Below are positions 9,937 through 59,206 of a stretch of DNA of 64,000 nt, one piece after another. Position 1 is the first letter of the stretch, and the number at the start of each line of letters is the position of its first letter. The notes below the pieces were generated by a model. That model saw only the letters and a program-made list of their open reading frames with translations. It did no database searches and was not told where the DNA came from. Source of the DNA: Acidimicrobiia bacterium (GTDB lineage: Bacteria > Actinomycetota > Acidimicrobiia > Spongiisociales > Spongiisociaceae); assembly GCA_041576165.1 (NCBI GenBank), contig JBFGLM010000012.1:1-64000 (forward strand), written 5' to 3'. The position numbers and the translations under genes are program-made.

Positions 9937-10476
9937 ATGGCTGTGATGTACCACGAGCTGCCCGGCATTCGGCCCACCATGAACGACGGTGATGGCACGC
10001 CGCGGGCGGCCGTGCTCGTGCCGTTGTTCGTGAGCAACGGTGCGTTGCGCCTGATACTCACCAAACGCCCGATGCACATGCCGACCCACGCCGGTGATCT
10101 CGCGTTCCCCGGCGGCAAGCCCCACACCGGGGAGGAACCGGTGGACACAGCCCTGCGCGAGGCGCACGAAGAGGTCGGCATTCCGCCCGGACGGGTGGAG
10201 GTGCTGGGGTTCCTGCCCGAGATCCACACCGTCAGCTACAGCCGGATGGTGGTACCGGTGGTGGGCATCCTGTCCGGACAACCGGAGCTGCGGCCGGATC
10301 CCGGGGAGGTCGAAAAGGTCCTGTTGCCGGAAGTGGACCCATTCCGAGACGAGCACCGCTGGCGTGTGGAGTATTGGGATGATCGACCTGTCTACTTCTT
10401 TCCACTGGATGAGGAGATCCTGTGGGGGGCCACGGCACGTATGGTGCGCCAACTCATCGGCCTCGACCGGGCGTGA
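9937..10476 (+). CDS. Nudix hydrolase, CoA pyrophosphatase (NudL/PCD1-like)
   Basis: AAVLVPL, LTKR....THAGDLAFPGG, Nudix box TALREAHEEVG, WGATA. Confidence 0.9.
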   Translation: MAVMYHELPGIRPTMNDGDGTPRAAVLVPLFVSNGALRLILTKRPMHMPTHAGDLAFPGGKPHTGEEPVDTALREAHEEVGIPPGRVEVLGFLPEIHTVSYSRMVVPVVGILSGQPELRPDPGEVEKVLLPEVDPFRDEHRWRVEYWDDRPVYFFPLDEEILWGATARMVRQLIGLDRA

Positions 10477-11690
10477 CCGCGGCGGTCGTCGACGCCCATC
10501 GGCGGGCATGGGGAGTCGAACCGGAAGTCATCGCAAGCACACCGGGACGCGTCAATCTGATGGGCGACCATGTCGATTACGCGCTCCTACCCGTGCTGCC
10601 GGTCGCCATTCAGTTACGTCTTCAGGTTGCAGCGGGTCGAGCCGGCGACGGGCGCGTCCACGGCATGTCCAGTCTTGGGGGCGGGAAACTGACCTTCACG
10701 GGCGGCGAAGAACCGGCCGGGTGGTTCCAGTACGTGGCGGCTGCTGTGAGAGCTGCGGGCGCACCTGCAGAAGGGGCTGTGCTCACGGTTGACGGAGACC
10801 TTCCCCACACCGGCGGTCTCAGCTCGTCGTCGGCTCTGGTTCTGGCCGTTCTCGCCGCTCTTTTGAAGCTTCAGGGTCAACGGCCGCCGCCCGGCGAGCT
10901 GGTTGCTCTCGCGGTGGCGGCGGAACGATCGCTGGGGATTGCCGGCGGGACGATGGATCAGACCGTCATCGTCCACGCCGTGGCCGGCTCCGCGCTGCGA
11001 ATCGATTTCGCGCCGCCCGGCTTGCGGGCCGTCCCCATTCCCGAGGAGGTGGCATTCGTCGTGGCATCTTCGGGCACGACCGCGGCCAAAGGGGGTTCGG
11101 CGCGTGATGCCTACAACACGCTCTCGATCGGGGCCCGGGTGGTGGCTGCACTGGCAGGCCGGCGGCTGGGCGTCGACCCCGGATCGCCGCCGGCGCTCGG
11201 CACTCTGGGCGTGCAGGCCGCGGGCCTGTGCACCGCGATCGAAAGCTTGCCGGCAACCATTTCGCTGGCCGATGCTGCGGAGGGGGTCGGTCGCTCGCCC
11301 TCCGATCTGGCGGGCGAAAGCGGCCTGGCGCCGACTGCGCGGCTGCCGGTGGCTGCCATCGGAGCCCATCTGATTGGCGAGGCTCGGCGAGTCGACGCCA
11401 CGGAGGCAGCGCTGCGGGAGGGCGACATCACCGAGTTGGGGGCCATCATGGGGGACTCGCACGAGAGTTTGCGCCGGCTGGGGACGGTCACGGCCGGTCT
11501 CGATCGAGTGACCGAGGCCATGAGCGAAGGCGGGGCGGCGGGGGCGCGGGTGACGGGCGCCGGATTTGGCGGGTACGCTGTAGGGGTGTGCGCCCGCGAT
11601 CGCGTCCCTCGCGTCCTGGCGGCGGCGGACGATGCAATCGGCGAGCCGGCGTTTGTAGTGCGTCCGTCCGAAGGCCTGAGCTATGACTGA
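10473..11690 (+). CDS. Galactokinase-family GHMP sugar kinase
   Basis: PGRVNLMGDHVDY, GGLSSSSAL, GTMDQ, GARVTGAGFGG; GTGA overlap with the Nudix gene. Confidence 0.85.
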   Translation: MTAAVVDAHRRAWGVEPEVIASTPGRVNLMGDHVDYALLPVLPVAIQLRLQVAAGRAGDGRVHGMSSLGGGKLTFTGGEEPAGWFQYVAAAVRAAGAPAEGAVLTVDGDLPHTGGLSSSSALVLAVLAALLKLQGQRPPPGELVALAVAAERSLGIAGGTMDQTVIVHAVAGSALRIDFAPPGLRAVPIPEEVAFVVASSGTTAAKGGSARDAYNTLSIGARVVAALAGRRLGVDPGSPPALGTLGVQAAGLCTAIESLPATISLADAAEGVGRSPSDLAGESGLAPTARLPVAAIGAHLIGEARRVDATEAALREGDITELGAIMGDSHESLRRLGTVTAGLDRVTEAMSEGGAAGARVTGAGFGGYAVGVCARDRVPRVLAAADDAIGEPAFVVRPSEGLSYD

Positions 11691-12399
11691 TCGTGCGGTG
11701 GTACTGGCCGCAGGCCGCGGGACCCGGCTTGGTGAGCTGACAACCGAGACGCCCAAGCCCCTGCTCGACGTCGCCGGCATGTCGGTGATCGAGCGGATTC
11801 TCGAGGGCATTGCGGCCGCCCAGATCTACAAGGCGGCCATCATCACCGGCCACCTCGCAGATCAGGTGGAAGACGCAACCTGGGGACTCGCAGGGATGTC
11901 TCTCGAGTTCATCCGCCAGCCGACCCAGAACGGAACCGCAGGTGCGCTCTCGCTCGCCCGCGATTTCACACACCGGCAGCGCTTCTTCTTCACGTGGGGA
12001 GACATCCTGGTCCACCCCGCCAACTACGAGGCAGTCATAGAGACCGCCAGCTGGGCGGATGCAGTGCTGGCCGTCAACCACGTGGATGACCCGACTCACG
12101 GTGCGGCTGTCTACGTCGCGGACGACTTCATCGTGCAGCGGATCGAGGAGAAACCACCGCCGGGAGGCTCCACCACCAACTGGAACAACGCCGGCTTCGG
12201 GGTCCTCGGTGAGTCAATCTGGGAACAGATCGATCACCTTGCACCTTCCGAAAGGGGTGAACTGGAGTTGCCAGATGCCATCGCTGGGCTGATCGAGTCC
12301 GGCGCCAAGGTTCTGGCCGTCCCTGTGCAGGGCTCCTGGTTCGATATTGGGACTCCCGAGATCCTGGCTGCCGCCCGAGCGCACTACTCGAGTCGCTAG
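11683..12399 (+). CDS. Sugar-1-phosphate nucleotidyltransferase
   Basis: AVVLAAGRGTRL...TPKPLL, GTAGAL, EEKP, SERGELELPD, WFDIGT. Confidence 0.88.
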   Translation: MTDRAVVLAAGRGTRLGELTTETPKPLLDVAGMSVIERILEGIAAAQIYKAAIITGHLADQVEDATWGLAGMSLEFIRQPTQNGTAGALSLARDFTHRQRFFFTWGDILVHPANYEAVIETASWADAVLAVNHVDDPTHGAAVYVADDFIVQRIEEKPPPGGSTTNWNNAGFGVLGESIWEQIDHLAPSERGELELPDAIAGLIESGAKVLAVPVQGSWFDIGTPEILAAARAHYSSR

Positions 12400-12440
12400 C
12401 CGATCGATCGCACTGCGGCATCCGCGAACAAGGGTGCACT

Positions 12441-13685
12441 CTAGGTCGGACGGTCCCGCCGGTCGTCCAGGTCGATGGTCCGGCCTGTCACCCGCGACTC
12501 TTCGGCGGCAAACGCCAGCAGGTGACTCTCCAGTGCCTCCTCCCCGGAGGTCCGTGCCGGGAGGTCTGCCGTGACCGCACGCGTGAAGTACTCCATGAGA
12601 CCGCCGTCGCCCCCGCCGTGGCCGCCGGTCGCGTACCGGATCTCGACCTTCTCCACCTCGCCCGACCCCCGCTGGTGGATCTCGATCGACTGATCACGCC
12701 CGAAGTACCCGCGCAAGGTGGCATGGGTGCCGTCGTACCGCATCGTTCTCGCTTCCTCGGCAGCATGCCCGTGCATGATCAGAGTCCCTGTCGACCCGTC
12801 CGCTCTCTCCATAGCGACGACTTGATGATCGACCACGTCGGATCCGGCCGTGTACACGCACCGGCCATACGGGCCCTCCTTCAGCGCCTGGAGCCGCCCT
12901 GCCGGGCTCAGGTCGTCGGTGACGACGTGGACCGGCCACCCGGACCAGGCCTCGTTCGTGTACAGCCGGGTGGCCTCATAGTGGCACGAATCGGCGGCCG
13001 GGCATCCGTCCGTGCAGCGGGGCGGCGCACCCGGCGGGGCGTGCTCGGGGCGGAAATGCATGAGCGACCCAAACGAGTGGAGCCGCCGCACCGGGGCCGC
13101 CGCGTTCCATTCCAGAATGTCGAAGTCGTGGCAGCACTTCTGGACCACCATCGGTGTGGAGGTCTCACCCCGGGCCCAGTTGCCCCGCACAAAACTGTGG
13201 GCCATGTGCCAGTACACGACGTTTTCGCGGTGCTCCACGGTGATGATCTCCCCCAGCCGGCCCGACCGGACTATTTCGTTGAGGGTGGTGAAGAAGGGCG
13301 TGTAGCGAAGCACGTGGGCGACGTGCAGCTGGCGCCGGGCGAGCCGGGCTGCGTCCACCAGGCGCCGGCTGTCGGCGTAAGTGGCGGCGATTGGCTTTTC
13401 CACCAGCACGTGTGCCCCGCCGGACAGCGCCGCCAGCGCGGGCTCCACATGGTGGCGGTCGCTGCTGGCGATGATCCACGCCGGTGCGTCCACCCCTACC
13501 GACTCGTGGTCGGCGAACTGACGGGAGGGCGGGATGTTGTGGATTTCCCCGAACCGGCGGCGCCGGCCCGCGTCTGGCTCGACCACGGCCACGATGCGGA
13601 TGGAGTCCGGATAGCGACGGGCGTAGTCGCCGTACACGTACCGGCCTCGCTGGCCGGCTCCGACGAGTATCATATCCAATGGCAT
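12441..13685 (-). CDS. Gfo/Idh/MocA oxidoreductase
   Basis: ILVGAGQRG, VEKPIA, HVLRYTPFF, HSFVRGNW, KCCHDFD, GHGGGD. Confidence 0.9.
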   Translation of the reverse strand: MPLDMILVGAGQRGRYVYGDYARRYPDSIRIVAVVEPDAGRRRRFGEIHNIPPSRQFADHESVGVDAPAWIIASSDRHHVEPALAALSGGAHVLVEKPIAATYADSRRLVDAARLARRQLHVAHVLRYTPFFTTLNEIVRSGRLGEIITVEHRENVVYWHMAHSFVRGNWARGETSTPMVVQKCCHDFDILEWNAAAPVRRLHSFGSLMHFRPEHAPPGAPPRCTDGCPAADSCHYEATRLYTNEAWSGWPVHVVTDDLSPAGRLQALKEGPYGRCVYTAGSDVVDHQVVAMERADGSTGTLIMHGHAAEEARTMRYDGTHATLRGYFGRDQSIEIHQRGSGEVEKVEIRYATGGHGGGDGGLMEYFTRAVTADLPARTSGEEALESHLLAFAAEESRVTGRTIDLDDRRDRPT

Positions 13686-13891
13686 TGCCCGGCGAGCGTA
13701 CCCAGCTCGGGGTGCCGGCGGCCGGTCTGTCGACTCCCTGATCGAACTGGCCCGGCTGATCTCGATGATGGGTCGTGCAGAAACTCGCCGGCCTGTCCGG
13801 CCCAACACCCAGGCGCGATCGGGCTCTTGGTGGGTCTTCCGGCCGTTCGCCGGCCACGCTGTCTACATTCCTGAGCGCGCGCCGGAACGGG

Positions 13892-14686
13892 TCATGTCGC
13901 GGTCGGTCGGCCGGTGAGGATGTCCAGAACCTGCTGATGGAGCACGCCGTTGCTCCCGACCGCCGAACCGGCAGAGTAGGAAGCGCTGCCGTCCATGGCC
14001 GAGAAACGTCCACCGGCTTCCGGCAGGATCACGGCCACGGGAGCGACATCCCACGTGTTCACGATCGGATCCACCATCACCTCCATCCGGCCGGTCGCGA
14101 CGAGCGTATAGCCGTAGGCGTCTCCCCAGGTGCGGAGCAGAAACCCGCTCTGGTGGACCGAACGCATCATGGACGGGGGCATGGCGGCGAAATCGCTCGT
14201 AGAAAGCACCGCCGTTTCGACCCGTTCCGTCTGCGAGACGCGGCACGGAACGCCATTGTGAAACGCGCCGCGGCCCCGGCCGGCCCACACCGTCTCTTCG
14301 AGGGCGGCGTGATGGATCGCCCCGGCGACGATCCCGTCGCCGTCCTCCACTGCGAGCAGGGTTGCGAACAGCGGAACGCCATGGACGAACGAGAGCGTGC
14401 CGTCGATCGGGTCGATGATCCAGCGACGCTCGCCGGTACCGGTGACGCCTTCCTCCTCCCCGAACACCGAGTCTTCGGGGTATCGGACGGCCAGCTCGTC
14501 ACGAATGATGCGCTCCGCCGTGCGGTCGGCGACCGTCACGGGGGTGCCATCAGCCTTCTCGACGAGCTCCAGATCGGCTCGGCGAAACCACTGCAGGGTG
14601 GCGTCGCCGGCTGCTCGCGCCAGGGCGACGACCTCGTCGATCAGGGTTTCGTCGGCAGGCGGGGCAGGCGGCACCCGAAGCTCCAC
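13892..14686 (-). CDS. hisN: Histidinol-phosphate phosphatase, inositol monophosphatase family
   Basis: KADGTPVTVADR, GEE, WIIDPIDGT.SFVHGVP, R.WGDAYGY, WDVAP, EAGG. Confidence 0.78.
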   Translation of the reverse strand: MELRVPPAPPADETLIDEVVALARAAGDATLQWFRRADLELVEKADGTPVTVADRTAERIIRDELAVRYPEDSVFGEEEGVTGTGERRWIIDPIDGTLSFVHGVPLFATLLAVEDGDGIVAGAIHHAALEETVWAGRGRGAFHNGVPCRVSQTERVETAVLSTSDFAAMPPSMMRSVHQSGFLLRTWGDAYGYTLVATGRMEVMVDPIVNTWDVAPVAVILPEAGGRFSAMDGSASYSAGSAVGSNGVLHQQVLDILTGRPTAT

Positions 14687-14825
14687 GCTCTACGGTTCCC
14701 GGATCGTACCCGGACCGGACAGGCCGCCAACGGATTGCGACAGTTCTGACATTCATGGATCGCATCATCAGCGGGGGCAAGAAAAAAGATATTCGCGAGG
14801 TAAACCCCACGGCGGGGTAGTGCGA

Positions 14826-15049
14826 GTCCCCTCATGTCGGAACCATTACGGGACCGGCAAGCCCCGGATCCAGTCCGGAACGTCTGAGATCTAAGGGGGT
14901 TGTGGTTCGCAAGGACCACGGGAGAAGAGGGTCCGGGCGCCGGCGGCGGCCATCCGCCAACCGCTGCCGGCGCCAAGGCCTGTTCTCGATTAAGGGGGAC
15001 CAGGAGGGTGACGCCGCCGCCACGTTGTGCCCAGCGTGCCGGCGGCGTT
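14826..15049 (+). ncRNA. Candidate structured small RNA (family not recognised)
   Basis: Closing stem 14826-14843/14982-15000, helix 14864-71/14929-36, GCAA-tetraloop hairpin 14902-14919, 14-bp hairpin 14936-14974, terminal hairpin 15010-15049. The wobble positions are G-U only on the + strand. Confidence 0.5.
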
Positions 15050-15134
15050 GCGCGTGTTTGGGCCGGCTGTCCGGCGGTCCGGAATCGAGCGACGCACGAT
15101 TTGGCGGCGGTGGCGCCGCCGGGCTGAATCTCGG

Positions 15135-16709
15135 CTAGGTTGCCTCGACCTGCAGGCGCAGCAGGCCCACGATGATCCCATCGACCAGCGCTTCCCACGA
15201 CGCCTCGATGATGTTGGAGTGGACGCCGATTGAGCCCCAGGCGGTGATGCCGTCGGACGTTTCCAGCAGCACCCGCGTGGTCGCAGCCGAGGCCTCGCTC
15301 GAGTCGAGCACCCGCACTCGATAGTCGGTGAGCCGGAGCTGGCCCACGGCCGGGAATTCCACCTGGAGCGCCGTCCGCAACGCCTGGTCGAGGGCATTCA
15401 CCGGGCCGTTGCCTTCTCCGGTTGTCACGATCCGATTGCCGTTGACGACCACCTTCACCGTTGCCTCCGCCACGATCTCCTCGTCGGCCCGGCGCTCGGT
15501 GAATACACGGAACGACTCCAGTTCGAAGAACGGTTGCTTCCAGCCGGCGATCCGGCGCAGCAGCAACTCGAAGCTGCCGTCCGCCGCCTCGAAGTGATAG
15601 CCCTGATGCTCGAGCGTCTTCAGCTGGTCGATCACTTCTACCGCCAGCTCATCGGTGATCGGAACGCCCAGTTCCTCGGCCTTGGACAGCACGCTCGCCT
15701 TCCCAGACAGCTCCGATACCACCATCCGGGTGCGATTCCCGACCAGCGCTGGATTCTGATGCTCATAGGCGTCGGGCCGGCGAGCCAGCGCTGATGTGTG
15801 CAGGCCCGCTTTGTGGGTGAAGGCCGATGTTCCCACATAAGGGCGGTGTGGGTCGAGCGACACGTTCACGATCTCGGCGATGTGATGCGAGATGGGGGAG
15901 AGGCTCTGCAATCGCTCCTCGTCCAGGACCCGGCGGCCCATCTTCAGCACGAGGTCGGGCAGGATGGTGGAGAGGTCGGCGTTGCCGGTGCGTTCCCCGT
16001 ATCCATTGATGCAGCCCTGAACCTGCCGCACACCCTGCTCGACCGCGGCCAGCGACGACGCCACTGCGCAGCCGGCGTCGTTGTGGAAATGCACGCCGAT
16101 CTCGGCTCCCGGCAGCCGGGTCTGGACCTGGTTGATGGCGTGGATGACGTCGGACGGCAGCCGCCCGCCGTTGGTGTCGCACAGCACGACTCGCTCGGCC
16201 CCGGCGTCCAGCGCGGTCCGCAGGGCGGTCAGCGCGAAATCCTCGTTCGCGGCGAAACCGTCGAAGAAATGCTCGGCGTCGAAGAATACCCGCCGGCCGC
16301 GGCTGCGCAGATAGTCGATGGACTCGCCGATCATCATGAGCCCCTCATCGAGGTCGGTGCGCAGTGCCTCGCGGACGTGGTAGTCCCAAGACTTGCCGAC
16401 GATGCAGATGAACTCGGTCTCCGCGTCGAGCAGCGCCTTGAGCTGAGGATCCTCCTGCACCGAGATCCGTGGCCGGCGGGTGGACCCGAACGCAACCAGC
16501 AAGGAGTTGGCCAGGTTCAGCTCACGGCGGGCGCGCTGGAAGAACTCGTCGTCTTTGGGGTTGGCGCCCGGCCACCCGCCTTCAACATAGGTGACGCCGA
16601 GATCGTCGAGCAGCTGGGCGACGCGCAGCTTGTCGCCAACTGTGAGTGATATGCCTTCTTGCTGGGAGCCATCCCGCAGGGTCGTGTCGTAGATCTCCAG
16701 CTGTTCCAT
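15135..16709 (-). CDS. cimA: Citramalate synthase
   Basis: YDTTLRDGSQQEG, EGGWPGANPKD, FDAEHFFDG, LCDTNGG, HFHND, NGYGERTGNA, HKAGLH, EAADGSFELL. Confidence 0.92.
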   Translation of the reverse strand: MEQLEIYDTTLRDGSQQEGISLTVGDKLRVAQLLDDLGVTYVEGGWPGANPKDDEFFQRARRELNLANSLLVAFGSTRRPRISVQEDPQLKALLDAETEFICIVGKSWDYHVREALRTDLDEGLMMIGESIDYLRSRGRRVFFDAEHFFDGFAANEDFALTALRTALDAGAERVVLCDTNGGRLPSDVIHAINQVQTRLPGAEIGVHFHNDAGCAVASSLAAVEQGVRQVQGCINGYGERTGNADLSTILPDLVLKMGRRVLDEERLQSLSPISHHIAEIVNVSLDPHRPYVGTSAFTHKAGLHTSALARRPDAYEHQNPALVGNRTRMVVSELSGKASVLSKAEELGVPITDELAVEVIDQLKTLEHQGYHFEAADGSFELLLRRIAGWKQPFFELESFRVFTERRADEEIVAEATVKVVVNGNRIVTTGEGNGPVNALDQALRTALQVEFPAVGQLRLTDYRVRVLDSSEASAATTRVLLETSDGITAWGSIGVHSNIIEASWEALVDGIIVGLLRLQVEAT

Positions 16710-16740
16710 CTCGCCGCCCTCTGGTCGTCGGAATCCGGCC

Positions 16741-16773
16741 AACAAAAAACCCTCCGCCGTCGGGGCGCAGGGT
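16741..16773 (-). terminator. Attenuator terminator upstream of cimA
   Basis: Minus strand ACCCTGCGCC-CCGAC-GGCGGAGGGT followed by TTTTTGTT. Confidence 0.85.
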
Positions 16774-16803
16774 GCCGGGCGCATACGGGTTTGGGGTATG
16801 CGC

Positions 16804-57507: not shown

Positions 57508-58487
57508 TCAGCCGGTTGGAACCACGATTTGGTCTGTTGGCGCCAGCGGTGCGAAATCGGTGTGCACGCTGGTAGGAGGATCTCCCGGCAGCGTGTATCC
57601 GGCGCCGACGAGCAGGCCACCGGCGATAGTCATCGTCGTGTCGACTGTTTTCGCCGCCACTCCCAGGACCCGGCCCGGATACGTGACGGTCAGGGCGATG
57701 CTGTCGGCCGATACCGCGGTGACGGTAACGGCCAGGGGATCGACCAGAATGGCCAGCGATTCGCTCGGGGCAGGCTCGCTGGCCAGCAACCCCCATTCTC
57801 CGTCATCGACTTATGTCCAGCGTTCGGTGGGAGTGATCACGTAGGTCAAGTGGGCGCCGCCAGAAGAGATCTCCAGCTGTGCCTGATCGCCCATGACCAC
57901 ACCATTGATCGTGCCTACCTCCTGATCCCCCACCAGTGCCACCGACATCGAGCAATAGCCGTCGGCGTATCGGTCGAGTGCCGCGGCGAATACTGCAGGT
58001 CCGTCGACGGCTGGCTGGACGAGCTCGGGGTGGCTGCGGCGACTGGCTCGGGAGGGGCAGCGGTCGGCGATGCGGGGCGTTCCGGCTGCGGGTCGGCGGC
58101 GGTAGCCGATTGGGGCGCCGGCTCGAAGCCGACCACCCCGGTGACGTCGCGGGCGACTTGGTGCCACGACCCCGGCAGCGCCTGCGCAACGGCCAGCCCG
58201 CCCACCGTCACCAGCACCACGAGTGCGGTGGCGGCAGCCCGAGCCAGATGACCGGCGAGCACGGGAACCGTGCCAGCGAACCGGGATGAAGCGCCCGCGC
58301 TCGACCGGCCGCTCAGTTCAAGTGACGTGCGGGCGGCCGCCGCCACCTGGGCGGCCTGAGCTGCCGGTGATACCGGATGCTCCAGCAGCCGGAGGCAGTC
58401 CAGCAGACCCGCCAGCTCGGGGTAAACGGCGGAATCGTCGACGTAGTGTTCGTCCATCTCACCTTGGTTACCGACCGCGCCCCTCAT
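57508..58487 (-). pseudogene. Disrupted putative anti-sigma factor (cytoplasmic N-terminus, TM, Pro/Ala linker, extracytoplasmic beta domain)
   Basis: ATGA-coupled to the ECF sigma gene; frameshift near 58030 joins ...VAAATP to ELVQPAVDG...; in-frame TAA at 57811-57813 (ERWT*VDDGEWGLLASEP) joins the next piece. Confidence 0.65.
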
Positions 58488-59038
58488 CCCGTTACCGCGG
58501 TCAGGGTCTGGCGGATCGCCGTCATCGCTCGATCGTGAATCATGCGGACGGTGCCCGGCGGCTTGCCCACGGCGTCGGCGATCTCGTTGACGCGCAGACC
58601 GGCCATCGCGCGCAACAGCACGATGTTGCGCTGGTCATCGGTGAGATCAGCCAGCAGCTCGGCGATCCACGCCCATTCTGTCGATTCGACCACATCTCCC
58701 TCCGTGTCCGCAGTGGGATCGGGGGTGTCGGGCACGGAATCTCCGGCAGGCTCGACCGGGCGCCGGGCCGTGCGGCGGCGTTCATCCGCCAATCGGTGAT
58801 GCGCAACGATGAACGTCCATGAACGGAATTCCGTGTAGCCCCCGCTGAACCGGCTGATATCGCGGGCTATCTGAGTGAAGGTCTCACCAAGGAGGTCCTC
58901 GGGCTCGCGAGCTCCGCGGACCAGCAGATACGCGTGGAGAGCGGGTGAGATGTCGGCGTAGATAGCGGTCCACGCCCGCTCGCATCCCTGCCTGGCGTCC
59001 CGCAGCGCAACCACGAAGGCGGGTTCGATCGGGGTCAC
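58484..59038 (-). CDS. ECF RNA polymerase sigma factor
   Basis: Region 2 EDLLGETF..IAR.I.RF....FRSW.F.VAHHRL.D; region 4 LTDDQR..VLLR...GL.V.EIA...GKPPGTV. Confidence 0.9.
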   Translation of the reverse strand: MTPIEPAFVVALRDARQGCERAWTAIYADISPALHAYLLVRGAREPEDLLGETFTQIARDISRFSGGYTEFRSWTFIVAHHRLADERRRTARRPVEPAGDSVPDTPDPTADTEGDVVESTEWAWIAELLADLTDDQRNIVLLRAMAGLRVNEIADAVGKPPGTVRMIHDRAMTAIRQTLTAVTG

Positions 59039-59104
59039 CTCTCCGGTCCGGAGGTCGCGAGCAATGTGAGAAGTCCTGGCTTGATCATCGATATTGCACC
59101 TGGC

Positions 59105-59131
59105 TCATCGGACTCGTCGCAGAAAGCTTGA
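59105..59131 (-). promoter_or_regulatory. Putative sigma28 (FliA/WhiG)-type promoter for the ECF sigma gene
   Basis: Minus strand TCAA-N15-TCCGATGA. Confidence 0.4.
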
Positions 59132-59206
59132 AGGTTTACGGGCCTTTCCCAACCCGCGGCGAGAGCACCCACGCTCTCGACCTGCGAAGCCTGCGCGGTG
59201 TTGCGA

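Follow-up and report, generated by a model that had tools for sequence, protein, structure and literature searches.

A predicted ECF-driven non-coding RNA between hisN and cimA in an acidimicrobial genome, possibly a sponge for a C-rich, 6C-like sRNA

The gap between hisN and cimA in an Acidimicrobiia bacterium (assembly GCA_041576165.1, contig JBFGLM010000012.1, positions 1 to 64,000; this 64,000-nt stretch is the window) very probably harbors a non-coding RNA gene driven by an ECF sigma factor. The predicted RNA is about 226 nt long (14834..15059, + strand); its 5' end (+/-1) is derived from promoter geometry, and its 3' end is placed after a terminal hairpin. The first-pass annotation had recognized no family signature; likewise, an Rfam scan of the region and its homologs gave no family reaching its gathering score, so that the RNA appears to be uncatalogued in Rfam. 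It also appears to be absent from the literature, as no description of it was found in searches of papers in which subscription journals were thinly covered. The function tentatively preferred here, with somewhat less than an even chance, is that of a stand-alone RNA of an ECF envelope regulon that would sponge a C-rich, 6C-like sRNA in the manner of RosA and RsaI. In the following, G000 is the 5.1-Mb genome holding the window; the relatives of interest are G004 (genus g5) and G005 and G010 (both genus g6).

The gap measures 448 nt, in agreement with the ~450 bp given previously, and holds no conserved ORF; all sequences quoted in the first-pass annotation (both arms of its helices 1-5, and the A-tract at 14779-87) are present where it had placed them. 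Both flanking genes lie on the - strand: a hisN-like histidinol-phosphatase / inositol monophosphatase gene (13892..14686; TIGR02067, 238 bits, below the cut-off of 275), and the citramalate synthase gene cimA (15135..16784; TIGR00977, 681 bits, above the cut-off of 450), which is convergent with the RNA gene. The hexamer TACGAT (14703..14708, - strand), also found in G005 and G010, is the probable -10 element of hisN, of primary-sigma type, and is divergent from the RNA gene. The A-tract (14779..14787, strand unassigned) was called as a terminator-like site and has an AT-rich counterpart at the equivalent place in G005 and G010; it may act as an UP-like element of the + strand promoter, as the U-tract of a - strand terminator, or as both. 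This putative terminator (stem 14811-14794 plus A-tract) would end cimA transcripts; it overlaps the -35 element of the RNA promoter. The region is single-copy in G000 (next-best match E 0.136), which rules out a repeat or mobile element. Galactokinase-like, nucleotidyltransferase, and Gfo/Idh/MocA-like genes come after hisN in the window (10422-13808), and G004 keeps this order. In G010, a long imperfect inverted repeat surrounds an A/T tract (L016:1143-1232), with a left arm that constitutes a second, divergent ECF-like promoter aimed at hisN.

The RNA promoter consists of a -35 element, GGTAAACC (14799..14806, + strand), and a -10 element, CGAGTC (14823..14828, + strand). An equivalent -35 element occupies the equivalent place in G004, G005, and G010, and the GWGCGAK motif of the -10 region is conserved in four of four genomes; all four loci show GGTAAACC-N13/14-GWGCGAK followed by 200-250 nt of stable structure and a terminal hairpin. 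Because the -10 hexamer sits at 14823-28, the start is predicted at 14834-35, using ShbA numbering from the part of the source available together with ECF genes that have an in-frame start 5-7 nt behind the hexamer. The GTCCCC arm of the closing stem proposed in the first-pass annotation overlaps the -10 element and discriminator; it would therefore be promoter DNA, and the 6S-like closing stem vanishes. The 5' ends of the four RNAs (14834; L016:1240; L018:1260; L289) have RUGU at or beside the predicted start. The predicted start coincides with an AUG in the window, G005, and G010, and in the window this AUG at 14834 opens a 17-codon frame that could be read from a leaderless mRNA for a short peptide. 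This possibility is very improbable; a stop follows directly after the AUG in G005 (UAA) and G010 (UAG), G004 has a possible GUG-UGA, and no frame is common across the genera, G005 and G010 differing by a one-base indel; the conserved small ORF that the first-pass annotation had weighed as a competing account of the region was thus not found.

Within G000, the pattern TAAAC[CA]-N16-CGA[GT] occurs at 12 intergenic and 2 genic sites (own gene calls, 4687 genes), compared with 0-4 intergenic sites for 15 other spacers; GTAAAC-N17-CGA has 26 sites, compared with 1-15 at 30 other spacers. The motif resembles the ECF40 consensus GTAAC-N17-18-CGAT (available part of PMC12019637) and retains the AAC of Streptomyces sigmaE promoters (available part of PMC6767563); no GTAAA motif was found for a numbered ECF group in the portion of the PMC7826278 supplement that was searched, and the RNA promoter motif is not given in the accessible parts of 10.1101/2020.06.23.168245 or PMC7826278. 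Across 301 genomes of the order, the strict promoter pattern has 16 sites in 15 genomes; among the matches listed, these mostly precede ECF sigma genes or divergent secreted-protein genes, and the promoter-pattern scans yielded regulon promoters and no additional RNA among the matches listed. The analysis defines an ECF promoter motif and a regulon for this order.

The putative cognate sigma factor of the RNA promoter is the ECF sigma encoded at G000:C14:73357-73887 (best match TIGR02983, 123 bits, below the cut-off of 141.55). With a single query, it was found in four of 29 family genomes (G000, G004, G005, and G010), and all four orthologs carry the promoter motif upstream; the RNA locus and this ECF sigma co-occur in the identical four genomes of 29. 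As a caveat, the 25 genomes without these parts are kin and not independent, and may represent one loss event. At G000:C14:73272-74906, this ECF sigma with its self-promoter is followed by a membrane protein resembling an anti-sigma factor with an extracellular domain. In G000, the motif is also carried by genes for M23+SLH and CAP+SLH proteins and by two additional ECF sigma genes. One of these two lies within the window (gene 58484-59038, motif 59139-59111, - strand; best match to the ShbA subfamily, 82 bits, below the cut-off of 209); it is a member of the RNA's regulon, though probably not the gene of the cognate sigma, and its best homologs in G004, G005, and G010 have no motif within 260 nt. 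The presence of a ShbA/SigD-like ECF sigma under the regulon motif (window 58484-59139) raises the possibility of a sigma cascade.

Several further loci share or vary the motif. A SigE-like gene at G000:C17:48300 carries it, and the promoters of ECF sigma paralogs on C7 and C17 are of a related type, TAAACC/TAGACC, and carry other -10 elements. At G000:C1:31167-31400 (+), a motif promoter, an uncalled hydrophobic ORF of ~31 codons behind a ribosome-binding site of GGGGG type, and a terminator define a candidate small membrane protein of the regulon. At G000:C6:104041-104502 (+), a motif promoter precedes a pair of short ORFs encoding 66 and 63 aa, of which the first has a single hydrophobic stretch, and at G000:C26:23302 (-) a motif promoter in a short gap leads through strong hairpins into antisense orientation within a dehydrogenase-like gene. 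The ECF leaders L357, L358, L557, and L558 share CAGGC/CAAGGC, a G-run, and GTC after the start, despite differing leader lengths.

The predicted RNA (14834-15059) folds with a minimum free energy of -126.8 kcal/mol (z -4.85; 0 of 200 shuffles equally stable), compared with z -1.8 for the opposite strand. Over 14810-15060, the z-score is -5.41 on the + strand (0 of 200 shuffles as stable) vs. -2.19 on the - strand, in keeping with the + strand bias claimed in the first-pass annotation. The fold is a series of hairpins in a row, without a central bubble. Hairpin H1 (14835..14859; pair probability 0.76-1.0) presents GAACCAU, the sole 7-mer common to all four RNAs. Hairpin H2 (14860..14901) combines GCCCC/GGGGU (probability 0.7) with GGAUC/GAUCU (0.94-1.0) and contains in its 3' arm G-tract 1, UAAGGGGGUUG (14892..14902), which is partly sequestered (opening cost 8.8 kcal/mol). 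Hairpin H3 (14902..14919; 0.99-1.0) has a GCAA tetraloop and the flanks UUGUGG and CCACGG, both of which are words common to all four RNAs. The long hairpin H5 (14922..14987; 0.92-1.0), with a 14-bp core at 14936-74 and an 11-nt loop at 14950-60, corresponds to the GYRCCGGC hairpin of the three homologs, as judged from homolog folds and alignment. G-tract 2, UAAGGGGG (14991..14998), lies in a single-stranded tail with an opening cost of 1.7 kcal/mol. The terminal hairpin (15009..15051; 0.99-1.0) is a probable terminator, its counterparts in the homologs being terminators; the U-tract is weak in the window RNA and clear in G004, G005, and G010. All these features are on the + strand. The sequence TAAGGGGG, noted previously as occurring twice, is indeed found at 14892 and 14991; among its 9 occurrences in the 5.1-Mb genome (both strands), these two form the sole pair within 226 nt. 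Of the five helices drawn in the first-pass annotation, helices 3, 4, and 5 are retained at pair probabilities of 0.92-1.0. In helix 1, the GUCCCC/GGGGAC pairs form (0.97-0.99) only in a transcript that includes 14826-31, an extent that promoter geometry disfavors, and the GUCG/CGAU and GAAC/GUUC pairs have a probability of 0.00; the same value applies to helix 2 (CCGGAUCC/GGGUCCGG), and the earlier structure as a whole is penalized by 16 kcal/mol (-121.5 vs. -137.9 kcal/mol).

Positional homologs provide the comparative framework. All 29 family genomes yielded a cimA gene, and hisN adjoins it in 27 of 28 relatives; a promoter, structured RNA, and terminator divergent from hisN occur in three of the 28 (G004, G005, and G010), and the cimA–hisN gap in the remaining 25 is at most 131 nt long and lacks the promoter motif. 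The gap extends over 334-339 nt in G005 and G010. In G004, a different gene comes after cimA, and the element stays upstream of hisN, at a contig end. Structural stability across the four loci ranges from z -5.2 to -6.7 (60 shuffles each); because the opposite strand of the relatives also folds well (z -5.3 to -5.6), the strand of their RNAs is assigned from promoter and terminator. Trained solely on G005 and G010, a covariance model recovered the G004 core as its best outside match (21.2 bits, E 0.0099 in 93 kb), and compensatory changes between g5 and g6 affect 13 of 37 core pairs, 97% of the cells being paired (three sequences, structure-fitted alignment). This model does not match the window RNA, and local alignments of the window RNA with each homolog remain at chance level (P 0.41-0.56); yet the four RNAs have eight 6-mers in common vs. 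1.5 expected (P 0.0015). The window RNA is accordingly treated as a positional ortholog with a putatively rearranged body. As to the conservation and covariation to which the first-pass annotation had looked, homologs in position and compensated pairs between g5 and g6 were found; the window RNA itself stays outside the model and yields only 22-40-nt GC-rich hairpin matches in nucleotide searches of 41 and 251 genomes. An independently transcribed, trans-acting + strand RNA, as proposed earlier, is supported by the conserved promoter of its own, by homologs with terminators, and by the lack of a conserved ORF.

The same comparisons bear on the alternative that the locus acts in cis, in which ECF transcription, running away from hisN and toward cimA, would insulate or interfere with these genes, the hairpins would mainly be terminators, and the body would have no trans function. 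RNA bodies that have diverged beyond alignment, the failure of the nested-core model to detect the window RNA, the close spacing of cimA and hisN wherever the element is absent (25 of 25), and the overlap of the - strand terminator with the -35 element are all compatible with such a role; against it stand the compensated core pairs and the shared 6-mers, the association of the element with hisN in G004 where cimA has a different successor, and a stable structure of 200-250 nt that exceeds the needs of a terminator. On balance, a purely cis-acting element is distinctly unlikely.

Wider searches delimit the known range to four genomes in one family. A second covariance model (R2) run against 141 genomes recovered only its three training sequences; five weak matches were rejected, four being coding and one a terminator-like hairpin. 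A nucleotide search with the G010 RNA in 301 genomes produced full-length matches only in G005 and G010. Among cimA loci in the named collection, hisN was adjacent in 2 of 80 and the promoter motif present in 0 of 80; the nearest named cimA records are mostly labeled Acidimicrobiia, in line with a host that probably belongs there. A metagenome pattern scan covering at least 120 loci gave none with promoter or flanking genes among the matches listed; one look-alike among these sits inside an ORF. A 16-of-17-nt look-alike at G000:C30:9680 was discarded as chance-level by the estimate made here.

The preferred reading of the RNA as a sponge involves a C-rich sRNA at G000:C4:~86590-86760, which has a primary-sigma-type promoter and an RF01066 (6C) match of 23.1 bits on its terminal hairpin, below the gathering score of 47. 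The surrounding interval (~86560-86770; L412:1165-1370) represents a conserved C-rich sRNA with three conserved C-rich single strands. Orthologs, 78-81% identical, occur in G004 and G005, so that three of 29 family genomes including G000 hold it; it was not found in G010 (a 78% complete assembly) or in the other 25 family genomes. In the order, matches were obtained in 31 of 221 genomes, other families included; one of the 31, G039, is unpublished and enters this count alone. The partner's terminal loop is complementary to G-tract 1 over 11 bp and to G-tract 2 over 8 bp, and the pattern TAAGGGGGT[TC]G has two sites in G000, namely G-tract 1 and, in opposite orientation, the partner's terminal loop. 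G-tract 2 with the partner loop CCCCCUUA gives a net energy of -8.4 kcal/mol, the RNA's best accessibility-corrected site, and is by this model the most accessible candidate binding site. In g5 and g6, the longest invariant between the two genera is a 12-nt block, recorded before the partner was known, which complements the partner's unpaired 5' C-tract; the matching GUUUGUGGGGG is extended by 10-12 pairs in g6, and the 21-base pattern has no other sites in G005 than the RNA and the strand opposite the partner. Predicted pairing spans 21 (g6), 11 (g5), and 11+8 (window) base pairs.

The statistical weight of this complementarity varies among lineages. Whole-vs-whole antisense alignments are significant in g6 (P 0.007 and 0.005; 1000 shuffles) and not significant for the window (P 0.73) and G004 (P 0.48); here G010 was tested against the partner of G005, and the two count as one lineage. 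Segment duplexes reach P 0.003 (G005), 0.002 (G010), 0.006 (G004), and 0.044 (window), with three segments per pair picked post hoc, after the matches had been seen. The best accessibility-corrected site pairs a G-run with a C-tract in four of four RNAs, at energies (-7.4 to -10.6) that lie inside the shuffle distributions (means -7.2 to -9.5; 86-110 shuffles); the G-block of g5 and g6 is partly paired (opening cost 9.5-9.9 kcal/mol). G-tract 1 is complemented equally well by a tRNA-like gene at its 5' end (G000:C33:546), and 10-bp matches therefore arise by chance.

The sponge mechanism would proceed in three steps. The ECF sigma would transcribe the RNA from ~14834, alongside genes for secreted and surface proteins; the G-tracts would then pair with single-stranded, C-rich stretches of the sRNA at G000:C4:~86590-86760, itself driven by the primary sigma, by UAAGGGGG used twice against the terminal loop in the window and by GUUUGUGGGGG against the 5' C-tract in g5 and g6; finally, sequestration or destabilization of the C-rich sRNA would free its mRNA targets during the ECF response. 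Further observations speak against a sponge: the pairing site changes from one lineage to the next; the partner is present in other families, yet a sponge-like locus was apparently lacking there, where 110 of ~117 TAAGGGGG sites in 17 genomes included five loose promoter-like matches and no convincing ECF-driven non-coding RNA; and partner sites show no enrichment in regulon leaders (P 0.15-0.30; 13 of 4580 genes).

Alternatively, the RNA could be a base-pairing, ECF-induced sRNA and directly repress mRNAs, as the negative arm of the envelope regulon, with pyrimidine loops (UCCCC, GCCUC) blocking ribosome-binding sites. This is rather unlikely, even with the ECF promoter also present on secreted-protein genes (M23+SLH, CAP+SLH), UCCCC and GCCUC loops exposed in G005 and G010 and CCUCCC in G004, and a precedent in the sigmaE-dependent sRNAs of E. 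coli (available part of PMC6767563); both roles could coexist, as RsaI has G-rich and C-rich regions (available part of PMC8216469). However, the H5 loop of the window RNA (CAUCCGCCAA) lacks an anti-SD core, and for six accessible segments no start-codon region (own gene calls) beat the best matches of shuffled seeds. The complement of the H5 loop was not enriched over the reversed control (36 vs. 56 sites in four genomes), and inspection by eye found no recurrent orthologous target gene.

The sponge reading can be extended to a three-part switch, in which the ECF sigma would drive its own gene and the sponge, the 6C-like sRNA would repress the sigma leader, and the sponge would lift this brake and lock the envelope response in the on state. 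Such a switch is unlikely. Its leader-repression step rests on the ranking of the G000 sigma leader among the top 8 of 4580 genes for the partner's terminal loop (P 0.002); the corresponding signal in relatives has P 0.05, 0.38, and 0.34, and the G000 site doubles as an inverted repeat of the promoter spacer. 6C/B11-type RNAs govern envelope traits in Actinobacteria. In the literature searched, where subscription journals were thinly covered, there was no three-part switch of this kind, no RNA antagonizing 6C/B11-type RNAs, and no sRNA of Acidimicrobiia. If true, the switch would provide the first sponge for a 6C-type RNA, with a binding site that shifts from lineage to lineage against a constant partner. 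Since both RNAs and their predicted base pairs are defined, antagonism of a 6C-type RNA can be examined in vitro and in a laboratory host, with no need to culture the organism.

The tests run here place the window RNA outside the 6S, Ms1, and 6C families. The first-pass annotation had compared it to 6S/Ms1-type RNAs, and a protein-binding function, as a 6S- or Ms1-like decoy for either RNA polymerase or the ECF sigma, or as a CsrA-type decoy, deserves consideration for its length of 200-250 nt and strong structure; moreover, neither RF00013 (6S; E<=1) nor RF02566 (Ms1) has a match in the region or anywhere in the genome, which would leave the role vacant. The resemblance is not supported once the promoter sets the 5' end: the closing stem overlaps the -10 element, and the long hairpin with closing stem and central bubble that marks 6S RNA is replaced by hairpins in a row. 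The architecture varies among homologs, the RNA is found in only 4 of 29 genomes and is absent at the locus in 25 of 28 relatives, and GGA motifs are located mostly in stems and linkers rather than hairpin loops (by eye), contrary to a CsrA-type decoy. Within the available part of PMC9130861, Ms1 and 6S share with the window RNA a similar length range, structure, an intergenic position, and an actinobacterial host; the window RNA differs by its ECF promoter, patchy distribution, and missing central bubble, and its hisN and cimA flanks replace the HAD hydrolase / oxidoreductase synteny of Ms1. A protein-binding RNA is, accordingly, very improbable. Elsewhere in the genome, G000:C6:96341-103508 contains, by eye, a HAD-IB hydrolase gene near a tad/ssd-like cluster, which is presumably the usual Ms1 neighborhood; the 70 nt after this gene are too short for Ms1.

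The 6C family (RF01066) has no match above its gathering score in the region, the genome, or the homologs, and the loops of the window RNA are not C-runs. In B11/6C, the C-rich terminator loop is the seed (available part of PMC12395582); by its C-rich terminal loop, it is the partner sRNA and not the window RNA that resembles 6C/B11 (RF01066; available parts of PMC6486639 and PMC12395582). The g6 RNAs expose UCCCC loops, in contrast to the window RNA, which has no exposed C-rich loop. The enteric sigmaE-dependent sRNAs (MicA, RybB) are shorter, depend on Hfq, act through a seed, and have proven mRNA targets; the searches performed here found none for the window RNA. The enteric RNAs are nonetheless similar as non-coding members of an ECF envelope regulon (available part of PMC6767563).

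The closest parallel is found in RosA of Bacillus subtilis and RsaI of Staphylococcus aureus, two G-rich RNAs that stand alone and sponge C-rich sRNAs; of these, RosA measures ~229 nt and binds C-rich sRNAs via G-rich regions (for this and the following comparisons, the available part of PMC8216469). Given the different phylum and the lack of an Rfam match, homology is not claimed. The RosA promoter is of primary-sigma type under CcpA, whereas that of the window RNA is of ECF type; RosA's G-rich regions are single-stranded and their binding is proven, whereas the window RNA, for which binding is a prediction, has G-tract 2 as its sole open G-rich region. The likeness extends to a stand-alone gene with its own promoter and terminator (for the window RNA, as judged from sequence and conservation), to two or three G-rich regions that complement C-rich regions of an sRNA, and to a narrow taxonomic range; RsaI additionally has C-rich regions, as do the g6 RNAs, and sponge-type complementarity of 11-21 pairs links the two RNAs in the three of four genomes that hold both.
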